A DNA stretch of 63,998 nucleotides, filler included, from Basidioascus undulatus (Eukaryota): NCBI GenBank assembly GCA_000826855.1. It is 6 parts of 6 records of this genome, joined end to end, with 100 filler letters (N's around TTAATTAATTAA, not from the genome) between each part and the next. Parts side by side here need not be neighbours in the genome. Positions count along the whole stretch, not along the records: positions 50,151 to 57,483 come from JTLS01001575.1; 5 more parts are not named here. One strand, written 5' to 3'. The position numbers and the translations under genes were made by a program. The notes beneath the pieces are model-generated. The model searched no databases, was not told where the DNA came from, and saw only the letters and a list, made by a program, of their open reading frames with translations. Numbering within the stretch: position 1 is the first letter of the stretch; each line of letters opens with the position of its first letter. This document shows positions 27,725 to 57,583 of this stretch, in pieces.

Positions 27725-27824
27725 NNNNNNNNNNNNNNNNNNNNNNNNNNNNNNNNNNNNNNNNNNNNTTAATTAATTAANNNNNNNNNNNNNNNNNNNN
27801 NNNNNNNNNNNNNNNNNNNNNNNN
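27725..27824. other. Artificial contig linker N44-TTAATTAATTAA-N44
   Basis: 100-bp N spacer with a six-frame stop core. Confidence 0.98.
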
Positions 27825-35173: not shown

Positions 35174-35273
35174 NNNNNNNNNNNNNNNNNNNNNNNNNNN
35201 NNNNNNNNNNNNNNNNNTTAATTAATTAANNNNNNNNNNNNNNNNNNNNNNNNNNNNNNNNNNNNNNNNNNNN
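35174..35273. other. Artificial contig linker
   Basis: N44-TTAATTAATTAA-N44. Confidence 0.98.
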
Positions 35274-42617: not shown

Positions 42618-42717
42618 NNNNNNNNNNNNNNNNNNNNNNNNNNNNNNNNNNNNNNNNNNNNTTAATTAATTAANNNNNNNNNNNNNNNNNNNNNNNNNNN
42701 NNNNNNNNNNNNNNNNN
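42618..42717. other. Artificial contig linker
   Basis: N44-TTAATTAATTAA-N44. Confidence 0.98.
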
Positions 42718-50050: not shown

Positions 50051-50150
50051 NNNNNNNNNNNNNNNNNNNNNNNNNNNNNNNNNNNNNNNNNNNNTTAATT
50101 AATTAANNNNNNNNNNNNNNNNNNNNNNNNNNNNNNNNNNNNNNNNNNNN
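50051..50150. other. Artificial contig linker
   Basis: N44-TTAATTAATTAA-N44. Confidence 0.98.
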
Positions 50151-52703
50151 AGGAGGTGGGGAAGCCAAAACGACGTAATTCCGCGGACTTCGAGAAGGAA
50201 GAGCTCAGCTTGTTGCCACGGGATGTGGCCCAGGCCGGACGCGTAGACGGCGATGAAGACGATCAAACTGATGACGACCGAGTCGGCCGGCCCCTTCGCG
50301 TAGACGGTGCCGTCCACGAGTTGTTGTCGGTCGGCTTAGTGAGGTAGTGGAACGCGACGGCTGCTGCAGCGCTCTCGGCTTGGGTACTGGGAAGGGAACC
50401 TTGACGGGGGTTGGATTACCAGGCCCCTGCCCACCGTCGACCCTACGGCGGCAGTTCTGTTGGTATCCAGGGGACACGCTGTGCATATACGCACCCGGCG
50501 AGGCGGCTCGTCTGCCGACCTAGCTTGGTAAGTTACCACTCTCACAGGGGCCCCGCAGTATTCACATAGGTCTTGAGAGGGCATGGCATCCATGTCCGCA
50601 CAACCCCCCAGTTGTGCACCCCCTCCCCACGAGGTCGATGTTCATCCCGGGACCAGTGATGAGCATCTACCGGGAAGGGCAAATTTTGCTCGTCAGCTCA
50701 TTGCCTCGCCCATTGCAACACAGTGAATGGAACGCACCAGGCGACGGCGTCCCACCCTGTCAACGAGTACCATTCCCACGCAAGTAAAGACGAAGTTGGC
50801 CCCCGCAACGATCAGGCCTGCGGCAGCAGCGTTATCGAATCCCAGGCTCTTGAAGATTGTGGCTGTGGTCATCAAAATCAGTACCGAGAGTCGTAAATTT
50901 GCATTGTAGATCTCCGTGAACGACCTACCGGAGTAGTACATCAAGCTGTGGTCACGGAGCAGCCCGGTCAGTTTCCATCCCTATTCATTGATAGAGGGCA
51001 AAACTTACGAGTTAAATCTGTCCTGTTCATTAACCACTGTCCGCAATCATCACATCATTCACCAAGAACTCACCCCGAAAGCTGCTGGTACGCCTGAAGA
51101 CCGCAGGCAACAATGAGCGCACGCCGATTGACTGGGATCTTGAACATCTTAATGCGCTCCCAAGGAGTGGTTGTGCGGGTGATGGATCTTTGCCGCAGAG
51201 CCTCAGCTCATTGTGTTCCGCCGTATGATGGGAATAGCGGGAATCGGATACTCACAGCGACTCCTCCACGTTGTGCTCAAGCACACGAAGCTTCAGGTCG
51301 ATCTGGTCCTCCGGCGCGTTGCGGTAGATCTTCCTCAAGACGTTGCGAGCGCCTTCGGTAACGTTCCGAGTGAGAAGATAGCGCGGTGATTCCGGGAGGA
51401 GGTGCATGAGGACTAGCTGCAGGATCGAGGGTTGTATTCTGACACGTAAGCTCCCCTCATGACGCATGTCAGAAGCGAAGAAATGGACGCACCCAATTGC
51501 TACCATCCACCTCCAGCCGTGAGGGACGTTGTTGAACGCTGCGCCGATCGCGTATGCGACTGTTTCAACATTGTAGCGCTGAGCAGTCCTGAAGCATTTC
51601 CACCTTTTTCTACTCACGAAGCTGTCCCATTGTGATGCAAAGCGAGTTGATGGTGACCAGACGTCCACGGAGCTTCATTGGTGCGAGCTCGCCGATGTAG
51701 AGCGGAGCGAGAGCAGCAACCGAACCGACGCCCAAACCGAGGAGCAAACGCCCGACCGAGGCCTGCGCCATGCTGATTGTTCCTCCAATTTCCGCTTAAG
51801 CATTACATAATTTTCTCCCTCAAAAAAGAGAATGTACCTGAAGGACGCAGCGATGATCGCTGCTCCGATGATAAAGCTGGACCGCAACGCAGCCGTCTCA
51901 GTTTCAACCCCAGCCAGCTCACTGAGAACATCGCAACTTACAAAAGGTCGGCGATAGCCAGCGTCCACTTGCGACCTAGGCGGTCAGAGATGAGGCCAGA
52001 AACGAGACTGCCGAAAAGTGCGCCGACCGTCGTCATCGAGCTAGAGAACAGTACCCATCGTCAGCATCAGGTGGCAGCGACGCACTGTGAAAAAATTGGA
52101 CACTTACGTAATAACCTCTTTTTGGCTGTTGGAAAGCTCTTCCGGACCAAGATCGCTCCCGATAAGAACCAACGCCCCACTGATAACGCCCGTGTCGTAG
52201 CCTAGATGTTGAAGAACGTATACCACGAGCCAGGCAAGGCGCAAGAAAACTGCGACGCGTACCGAAGAGGGTACCGGACAGGCCAGCCACAAAACAAAGG
52301 AAGACGATGAATCCCTCCATCTGCGGAGAAAGGTCAGCCCCAGAAACATATGCAAAGGCGTAAGTTCCTAAGCTTACCTTCTCTTCTCCTTCCACAATGA
52401 TAATGTTCTCGTCAACGTCGACCGGTGCTGTTGGCCTCCGCACGAAATCGGGCGCAACGGGCGCCTTGATGCCGTTGAACTCGAGGTGCTCATCGGAGTC
52501 CATACGAGCAAGGAATCGTTCCTTGTCCTTATCGGTGACGGCCGCGGTGGCGGCGAACTTTGGTTGTTGCGGTGTTGCCGTCGTGGGCGCAGTCGGGTCG
52601 AAGGAGGGGTCAGGGATGTGAGTTGGGGTGGAATTAGTGTCGGCTGGCTCGTGTTCAAGTATGTGCCATGAATGTGGGTGACCTGGGGCCAAGGAAAGGC
52701 CAT
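50151..52703 (-). CDS. MFS myo-inositol transporter (ITR-like), 3'-partial, apparently disrupted by an insertion and a frameshift; start approximate
   Basis: [54 protein letters not shown] (9- and 17-nt microexons), [25 protein letters not shown]. Confidence 0.9.
50368..50627 (-). mobile_element. ~260-bp insertion within a transporter exon, carrying a TFIIS-type zinc ribbon ORF (ATG 50593)
   Basis: Host frame PGMNIDLV | insert | [10 protein letters not shown]; insert encodes [41 protein letters not shown]; 7-bp stem hairpin at 50598-50617. Confidence 0.7.
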
Positions 52704-57483: not shown

Positions 57484-57583
57484 NNNNNNNNNNNNNNNNN
57501 NNNNNNNNNNNNNNNNNNNNNNNNNNNTTAATTAATTAANNNNNNNNNNNNNNNNNNNNNNNNNNNNNNNNNNNNNNNNNNNN
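57484..57583. other. Artificial contig linker
   Basis: N44-TTAATTAATTAA-N44. Confidence 0.98.

Follow-up and report, generated by a model that had tools for sequence, protein, structure and literature searches.

Relatives of D1, the capping enzyme of vaccinia virus, include pNP868R of African swine fever virus (ASFV) and the product of open reading frame (ORF) 3 of the yeast killer plasmid pGKL2, also called YKP3. Zinc ribbons of the TFIIS type, in turn, are C-terminal in cellular proteins, and the 'NUPAVs' (nuclear sequences of plasmid and viral origin) of yeasts were reportedly described by Frank and Wolfe in 2009. Here we describe a locus of the fungus Basidioascus undulatus (GenBank assembly GCA_000826855.1) at which these subjects meet: a 260-nucleotide (nt) insert within an exon of an inositol transporter gene encodes a TFIIS-type zinc ribbon with its own start codon. 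The locus lies in a stretch of 63,998 nt that was analysed as a whole and that we call the window. An earlier note on this DNA had suggested, as a fitting origin of the insert, the 5' end of a gene belonging to a DNA virus, a linear plasmid or another element with its own transcription machinery. We consider it likely that the 260 nt represent an endogenous fragment, now dead, made up of the leader and about 75 codons of the capping-enzyme gene of a virus-like or plasmid-like element, and probably captured as filler DNA.

Several described systems are close to this one. The killer-plasmid protein K2ORF3p is similar to D1 and is bound to the plasmid's own RNA polymerase, and this polymerase lacks the TFIIS-binding rim helices, according to the excerpted text of PMC6211774. 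TFIIS is a separate hallmark gene of giant viruses, as stated in the portion of 10.1101/2024.03.23.586382 used here. For fungi, the excerpt of PMC13348850 places killer-plasmid-like elements in Mucoromycota and Zoopagomycota, pseudogenes derived from Nucleocytoviricota in several fungal phyla, and integrated sequences resembling virus-like elements (VLEs) in Pezizomycotina and a few Agaricomycotina. The same excerpt states that neither Ascomycota nor Basidiomycota has a known double-stranded DNA (dsDNA) virus, and the words TFIIS and zinc do not occur in it. The question why Dikarya are not infected by giant viruses is raised in the excerpted part of PMC13533422, and the VLEs of Saccharomycotina are given as more than 75% A/T in that of PMC4431711.

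Results

A 260-nt insert interrupts a transporter exon exactly between codons

The interrupted gene encodes a major facilitator superfamily (MFS) sugar/inositol transporter on the minus strand (50151-52500), as judged by Pfam Sugar_tr matches of its exon ORFs and by exons taken from a spliced contig described below. Its homologues P0001 (Leucosporidium) and P0002 (Moesziomyces), both from basidiomycete yeasts, share 36-42% identity with it. On the minus strand the transporter frame reads ...VDRVGRRRL... up to 50628, is interrupted by the insert (50627 to 50368, minus) and returns with transporter codons from 50367 to 50323. Two orphan bases (50322-50321) follow, and the transporter frame then continues with LVDGTVY... 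from 50320 on to IPWQQAELF. When 50368-50627 was removed and an X was placed at the frameshift, 119 amino acids (aa) aligned to P0001 and P0002 with no gap at the site, and the alignment to P0002 was gapless over its whole length. Because the alignment is gap-free at the site once the 260 nt are taken away, the insertion is exact to the codon. It cost no host codons, and the ambiguity at the junctions is at most 1 nt.

The insert, of length 3n+2, puts the transporter frame off by 2 and introduces a stop codon. The gene is disrupted a second time by a 1-nt deletion at 50321-50322 (minus), between ...TKPTDN and LVDGTVY..., where a single X restores the gap-free alignment to P0002. This deletion downstream of the insert shows that the transporter gene is decaying. 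Realignment thus bore out both structural claims of the earlier note, namely a 260-bp insert in a minus-strand inositol transporter exon and a 1-nt frameshift before LVDGTVY. We found neither a target-site duplication nor a terminal inverted repeat at the insert, which therefore does not qualify as a transposable element, whether a DNA transposon or a miniature inverted-repeat transposable element. Direct repeats of 10-13 nt with one mismatch, shared by the insert and the upstream intron, were rejected as chance-level; by our own estimate 0.2-0.8 such repeats are expected in 850 nt.

The insert encodes a TFIIS-type zinc ribbon behind its own start codon

The insert consists of a leader of about 34 nt followed by about 75 codons. 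Its ORF begins at the ATG at 50593 and runs for 85 codons on the minus strand (50339-50593; stop at 50336-50338), leaving the insert into out-of-frame transporter sequence. It starts with MD, like two of the relatives described below (P0003 and P0007). The ribbon, CEYC ... YQARSADEP ... CTAC, occupies 50474-50566 (minus) and has two CxxC pairs, with four zinc-binding cysteines, on either side of the acidic hairpin R-S-A-D-E. Against Pfam PF01096 (Zn_ribbon_TFIIS) the ORF scored 25.2 bits (gathering cut-off 21) with an E-value of 1.4e-5, and after correction for the 1425 stop-to-stop ORFs of at least 30 aa in the window the expectation is about 0.02. The pattern CxxC...R[SA]ADE...CxxC occurred once in the six frames of the window and in none of 200 block shuffles. 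With a Pfam score above the cut-off and no occurrence of the pattern in the shuffles, we conclude that the ribbon is not due to chance, and the start codon and ribbon described in the earlier note are confirmed. R[SA]ADE occurs once more in the window (39866, minus), there without cysteines, and this occurrence was set aside as unrelated.

The earlier note had also pointed to a 7-bp stem just upstream of the ATG. The stem GCACAAC/GTTGTGC is present at 50598-50617; as a fold it is not significant, since the 91-nt fold has a z of -1.23 and 23 of 200 shuffles fold equally well. Rfam gave no match on 50151-50900 at E <= 1.

Relatives carry the ribbon at the N-terminus of D1-type capping enzymes

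We compared the insert ORF with 1,835,955,588 representative proteins by phmmer (E <= 1e-3). There were 11 matches, the best at 5.8e-7 and 46 bits, with 48-52% identity over about 45 aa. Ten of them have the ribbon at the N-terminus, at about residues 1-60 (Pfam E <= 0.01), and four of the ten exceed the gathering score. The remaining match, P0009, is a repetitive protein with no relation to the family and was discarded as a false match. In the ten relatives the ribbon lies within the first ~100 residues and mostly follows the start codon directly, the start codon being 2-21 residues ahead of the first cysteine. An 11-sequence alignment showed C26, Y38, Q39, R41, D44, E45, C53, C56 and L58 to be invariant and C29 to be nearly so. 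Because D44 and E45 are invariant, the acidic hairpin is conserved in the family. Significant similarity stops about 10 residues past the ribbon, at CPLD..., where the family turns variable.

Of these relatives, P0004 (727 aa), P0010 (746 aa) and P0011 (707 aa) are full-length, and P0013 is incomplete. Two more, P0014 (745 aa) and P0015 (734 aa), came from a profile search and are encoded on contigs of 5.3-9.5 kb. The only Pfam family recognised in the relatives is the ribbon, with no capping-enzyme model at E <= 0.01. In the full-length relatives, however, KxDGxR, DxE, DG and KxK do not vary across the aligned sequences (6 of 6 and 9 of 9), and KxK is followed by R.DK..(A/P)N (found by eye) and then by GxGDGQ (GSGNGQ in P0015). 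We take these to be nucleotidyl-transferase motifs I, III, IV, V and VI and S-adenosylmethionine (SAM)-methyltransferase motif I.

An AlphaFold2 (AF2) model of P0010, built from a 9-sequence alignment with a predicted local distance difference test score (pLDDT) of 74.6, had its best Foldseek matches with vaccinia D1 capping enzyme over the whole length (E 2.6e-19). Residues 88-746 of the model superposed on D1 30-843 with a Z of 15.7 (VIA), and the model matched D1 561-843 with a Z of 15.6 (VIA). By module, residues 227-497 matched the PBCV-1 guanylyltransferase (1ckm; Z 12.6, VIA), in agreement with a nucleotidyl-transferase/OB fold, and residues 500-746 matched the cap N7-methyltransferase RNMT (Z 16.5, rmsd 3.2, 212 aa). 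Motifs and predicted fold together support the view that the full-length relatives are D1-type capping enzymes with triphosphatase, guanylyltransferase and cap N7-methyltransferase modules.

Other searches added little. With P0010 as a single sequence, a search of the PDB returned nothing relevant, and a profile search of the PDB returned weak TFIIS and methyltransferase matches only. The family profile matched human TFIIS (1tfi) at E 0.026, with a spacer one residue shorter than that of 1tfi. The ESM Atlas pointed to giant-virus capping enzymes (score 0.88), which we used as a lead only, and a word-based search with a 101-aa ORF in the range of 55-177 aa gave 2 candidates, none of which scored. 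A narrow literature search found no description of a fusion of ribbon and capping enzyme.

Separately, we observed that six relatives are short (P0003, P0005-P0008 and P0012; 77-237 aa), P0012 having a degenerate hairpin, RSVDEPPC. These may be further truncated or decayed genomic copies.

Remote relatives adjoin polymerase genes

No relative of the family turned up in IMG/VR, where 10 pattern matches yielded 0 loci. Among metagenome contigs, relatives are encoded at 4 of 50 pattern matches (L001-L004). L004 is a 31.4 kb contig of 40% GC with dense ORFs on both strands; its ribbon-capping gene adjoins an 806-aa Rpb2-like gene and lies about 3.5 kb from a PolB gene. On L002 (23.9 kb) the ribbon-capping gene adjoins genes for a 615-aa Rpb1-like protein, a 741-aa PolB and a NADAR-RNase H fusion. 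The best PDB matches of the RNA polymerase and PolB proteins of these two contigs are archaeal and eukaryotic, that of the compact PolB being archaeal. The dense, intron-free stretches L004:1-17129 and L002:1-11526 may represent an uncharacterised virus-like or plasmid-like group.

L001 (1-1594) has a ribbon ORF, MASSDETATC...YQARSADE..., about 480 nt from a divergent gene with a fungal 2EXR domain (E 8.5e-8). Through this neighbour the family is linked with fungal DNA once more, and L001 may record a further integration of it into the genome of a fungus.

Taken together, the N-terminal ribbons of the relatives, the D1-type motifs and fold of those that are full-length, and the PolB and RNA polymerase subunit genes next to the remote ones support the origin suggested in the earlier note, the start of a gene that belonged to a DNA virus, a linear plasmid or some further element with transcription machinery of its own.

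The insert matches the start of a capping gene, with no other piece of it in the window

We then asked how much of the capping gene is present. In a tblastn search of the window, 12 family proteins matched 50363-50596 only (E 2e-12 to 1.3e-7; next best E >= 0.03), and the ORFs of L001-L004 matched 50360-50566 only. Since the matches of the family proteins are confined to 50363-50596, the insert corresponds to the leader and the first ~75 codons of the capping gene. We found no relative of PolB or RNA polymerase, no other part of the capping gene and no catalytic module in the 64 kb window. The earlier note had suggested that the insert could mark an undescribed endogenous element; the site itself has a fragment of 260 nt, with neither a whole element nor a further part of the gene in the window.

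The ribbon of the insert belongs to the same Pfam family (PF01096) as those of TFIIS, Rpa12, Rpc11 and Rpb9, as would also be expected if the 260 nt were a fragment, DNA or retro-copy, of one of these host genes. We regard that origin as scarcely credible. The insert ORF matched no TFIIS, Rpa12, Rpc11 or Rpb9 chain of the PDB at E <= 10, in a set that includes fungal Pol I, II and III subunits; near identity to TFIIS, Rpa12 or Rpc11 of the host, which the earlier note had named as fatal to its proposal, was not seen in this comparison with PDB chains. With the capping family, by comparison, the ORF reaches 36-46 bits and shares an extra CPL(D/N) motif and the position at the start codon, whereas the C-terminal place of the ribbon in cellular proteins is established knowledge.

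The insert is present in contigs of three public runs

The insertion site is on a 7.3 kb contig (50151-57483), about 220 nt from its end, and the earlier note had feared a chimeric contig end. We found the stretch in three public runs: X1 (2014), X2 (2025, from a different study) and X3 (from the same sample as X2). The contigs of X1 and X2 have 0 differences from 50151-52500, frameshift included, and each junction is inside a contig. At the frameshift site none of the three runs has a differing, missing or added letter. In X2 the two sides of the insert lie on contigs of 35,233 and 28,299 nt, and in X3 a single contig of 2015 nt spans the entire insert and both junctions without differences.

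An assembly chimera would fit the nearness of the contig end and the fact that both DNA assemblies (X1 and X2, de Bruijn contigs) break within the insert, at a 34-nt unitig (50586-50619) that is repeated in the genome. The X3 contig, however, crosses this repeat and the whole insert, and the junctions in X1 and X2 are each within contigs. The two halves are in the same orientation and encode consecutive residues of one transporter protein, which makes a chimera very unlikely. We conclude that the insert DNA is real, since both junctions are found with 0 differences in two DNA runs and in one spliced contig. Host sequence therefore flanks the insert on both sides in single contigs, as transporter codons in X1, X2 and X3, as expected of an endogenous fragment.

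The transcript retains the insert and loses most of the ribbon as a 54-nt intron

The X3 contig has 11 joints over the transporter gene, one of them with 25 extra letters that correspond to two micro-exons. The joints resolve into 13 introns, bounded by GT..AG once the 1-2 nt of ambiguity reported by the tool is allowed for, and because of these introns we take the contig to be a spliced transcript. One joint (50511/50566) is inside the insert and marks a 54-nt cryptic intron, GTGAAT...GCAG (50512-50565, minus), which takes out most of the ribbon (18 codons) and the frame-0 stop TGA (50562-50564). The contig keeps 206 of the 260 nt. The earlier note had asked whether RNA would show the insert spliced out, and in this contig it does not: the insert is retained and the 54 nt alone are excised. 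In this sole transcript the ORF is not a gene of its own, because splicing by the host takes away most of the ribbon.

The spliced RNA reads the N-terminal part of the transporter in frame 0, AAAVAFHYL in frame 2 and LVDGTVY in frame 1. With three different frames, the transporter is broken at the RNA level too. As the ribbon ORF is about 1 kb inside a host mRNA, it would have no function here.

A different account would make the 260 nt a long-standing spliceosomal intron, or intron material acquired more recently, in which the ribbon is incidental. The insert sits at a codon boundary (phase 0), about 258 nt could be taken out in frame by means of a weak GTGGGG ... GAG pair, and the gene has at least 13 other introns. 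Yet the X3 contig retains the insert and removes 54 nt only; the other 12 introns of the transporter are 56-141 nt long, 11 of the 12 being 56-71 nt; the ribbon frame matches a protein family at a library-wide E of 5.8e-7; and the separate 1-nt frameshift breaks the gene regardless. We judge an intron origin decidedly unlikely.

Frame 0 of the X3 contig is open across all 1399 nt. From this one assembled contig, isoform filtering by nonsense-mediated decay is possible.

Two further features of the contig were observed. A 141-nt skip (51492-51352, minus) uses a downstream acceptor and removes a conserved transporter segment in frame; a shorter canonical intron ending ...GTGAG would retain that segment. 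The contig also departs from the genome at 50210 (50205-50210, minus), without a GT donor and possibly as a GC-AG intron, three bases ahead of the next frame-0 stop, and its 30 loose letters past 50210 resemble, in another frame, the next conserved transporter segment.

A short block with the hairpin and ATG recurs in the genome

The 34-nt unitig at which the DNA assemblies break has a depth of 2.4-3.5x that of its flanks in X1 and about 2x in X2, and other contigs share it. It is part of a short block that includes the hairpin and ATG (50586-50626, minus) and recurs elsewhere in the genome with other flanks: the first ~42 nt of the insert, comprising the hairpin and the ATG-GAT start, are found in at least 2 other places. 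A third copy agrees with 50589-50626 but for 3 differences. Compared with each other, the two other copies are alike for at least 20 nt on both sides, and the letters downstream of them encode no ribbon. We found no second copy of the block within the 64 kb window and no exact match to the 31-nt hairpin block in IMG/VR. It is possible that the block is a leader common to several element genes.

If the block were a shared promoter or leader, the insert might belong, as a part still alive, to a larger element resident in this genome and integrated in at least 3 places, with the ORF or a parent copy perhaps expressed. The recurrence of 50586-50619 with other flanks, the third copy and the likeness of the two other copies over at least 20 nt on each side would agree with this, as would the end of the block just past an ATG-GAT start that P0003 and P0007 also use, and an open frame of 101 codons. 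Set against these points, the other copies have no ribbon downstream, the window has no further match to the family or to PolB or RNA polymerase, the ORF ends after 85 codons in out-of-frame transporter sequence, and in the sole transcript seen it lies deep in a transporter mRNA with 18 ribbon codons spliced away. We therefore find a live element improbable and retain the reading of the insert as a dead fragment.

The insert was probably captured as filler DNA

We propose the following series of events. A double-strand break would have arisen in the transporter exon, and a piece of the capping gene would have been taken up as filler DNA during end-joining repair. The insert, through its frame shift by 2 and its stop codon, would then have broken the transporter, the 1-nt deletion marking further decay, and the host spliceosome would have come to treat 54 nt of the insert as an intron, with loss of most of the ribbon. 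Capture by end joining is suggested because the insertion is exact, no host codons were lost, target-site duplication and terminal inverted repeats are absent, and the ambiguity is at most 1 nt. The donor was presumably episomal or viral, and its lineage, which is unnamed, may be undescribed.

The filler could instead have come from RNA, as a 5' cDNA of the capping mRNA made by the reverse transcriptase of a host retroelement. Short leaders are typical of cytoplasmic elements of this kind, and the insert starts about 34 nt upstream of the donor ATG in sense orientation, both of which would suit a cDNA. There is no poly(A) and no transcript 3' end, however, and the 5' part is a genomic repeat; beyond this, nothing distinguishes capture of DNA from capture of cDNA. 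We consider the RNA route unlikely and favour DNA.

Several points weigh against the reading of the insert as a dead, filler-captured fragment of an element's capping gene. First, significant similarity covers about 45 residues (up to 69 with L003), the remainder being a linker that is variable in the family. Second, the relatives are unnamed and their viral or plasmid nature is not proven; 16 of 23 ORFs of L002 and L004 have no Pfam family (E <= 0.001), and no capsid gene was recognised among them. Third, the GC content is 0.62 in the insert, 0.56 in the contig and 40-49% in the related loci L001-L004, and the gap between 62% and 40-49% implies that the donor was GC-rich, or that the insert is old, or that it was copied from a nuclear copy. 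Fourth, given the ~42-nt repeat, the insert may be a two-piece filler, a host repeat joined to a gene fragment, or may stem from a nuclear locus already resident in the genome and not from an episome. Finally, the evidence for splicing is one assembled contig (X3), with no raw reads, and X1 or X2 is possibly the source of the window, leaving at most one independent DNA data set.

Other features of the window

At least 13 short introns divide the transporter gene, which is truncated at the 3' end where the contig stops. Two of its exons are micro-exons of 9 and 16 nt (51009-51017 and 50930-50945, minus; F-N-S and L-M-Y-Y-S), confirmed by the 25 letters that the spliced contig has between 50863 and 51074. 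The window itself is six contigs chained by spacers of the form N44-TTAATTAATTAA-N44 (27725-27824, 35174-35273, 42618-42717, 50051-50150 and 57484-57583), and features are not readable across these joints. Eight long ORFs of the window were scanned with Pfam and gave no family.

Discussion

Captured scraps of viral and plasmid genes are the main evidence that fungi meet DNA viruses. The fragment described here is of a kind already known in fungi, and its interest lies in the donor to which it points, an unnamed and perhaps undescribed lineage associated with fungi. The insert points to a family in which a TFIIS ribbon is fused to a D1-type capping enzyme and which is known only as unnamed public sequences, and it offers a handle for seeking the element in the full assembly of the host and in related fungi.

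A broader hypothesis, which we hold tentatively and think somewhat less probable than its negation, is that B. undulatus, or one of its recent ancestors, was host to cytoplasmic DNA elements or viruses of an undescribed lineage whose capping enzyme had its own TFIIS-type cleavage ribbon. The insert, and perhaps the two other loci, would be footprints of this lineage, with the unnamed contigs of 5-31 kb as its free genomes. If this were true, the element would encode a much-reduced RNA polymerase, and capping would be coupled to the secondary channel of that enzyme. To judge by the nearest homologues of its transporter, the host may be a basidiomycete and would then lie within Dikarya, from which no dsDNA virus is known in the excerpted text of PMC13348850.

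The locus is also a small and clear illustration on three counts. It shows how capture of filler DNA may inactivate a gene, how the spliceosome can make a new 54-nt intron from foreign coding sequence, and how transcript isoforms may all keep one frame open.

We end with the likeness of this locus to known systems. The ribbons of TFIIS, Rpa12, Rpc11, Rpb9 and archaeal TFS have, like the insert, two CxxC pairs around a Q-x-R-S-A-D-E hairpin; in contrast to cellular TFIIS-type ribbons, that of the family is N-terminal and fused to a capping enzyme. P0004, P0010, P0011, P0014 and P0015 resemble vaccinia D1 in the same order of three modules, as judged by fold, and in the guanylyltransferase motifs. 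Unlike D1, the donor family has an extra TFIIS-type ribbon at the N-terminus, and the window keeps the ribbon end of the gene only. As in the endogenous viral and plasmid fragments of fungi, a truncated gene of cytoplasmic-element type has host sequence on both sides and no signature of transposition. It differs from the known fragments in being only 260 nt long and in lying inside a coding exon of a transcribed gene, and whereas the VLEs of Saccharomycotina are A/T-rich, this insert is GC-rich and comes from a donor family that is still unnamed.

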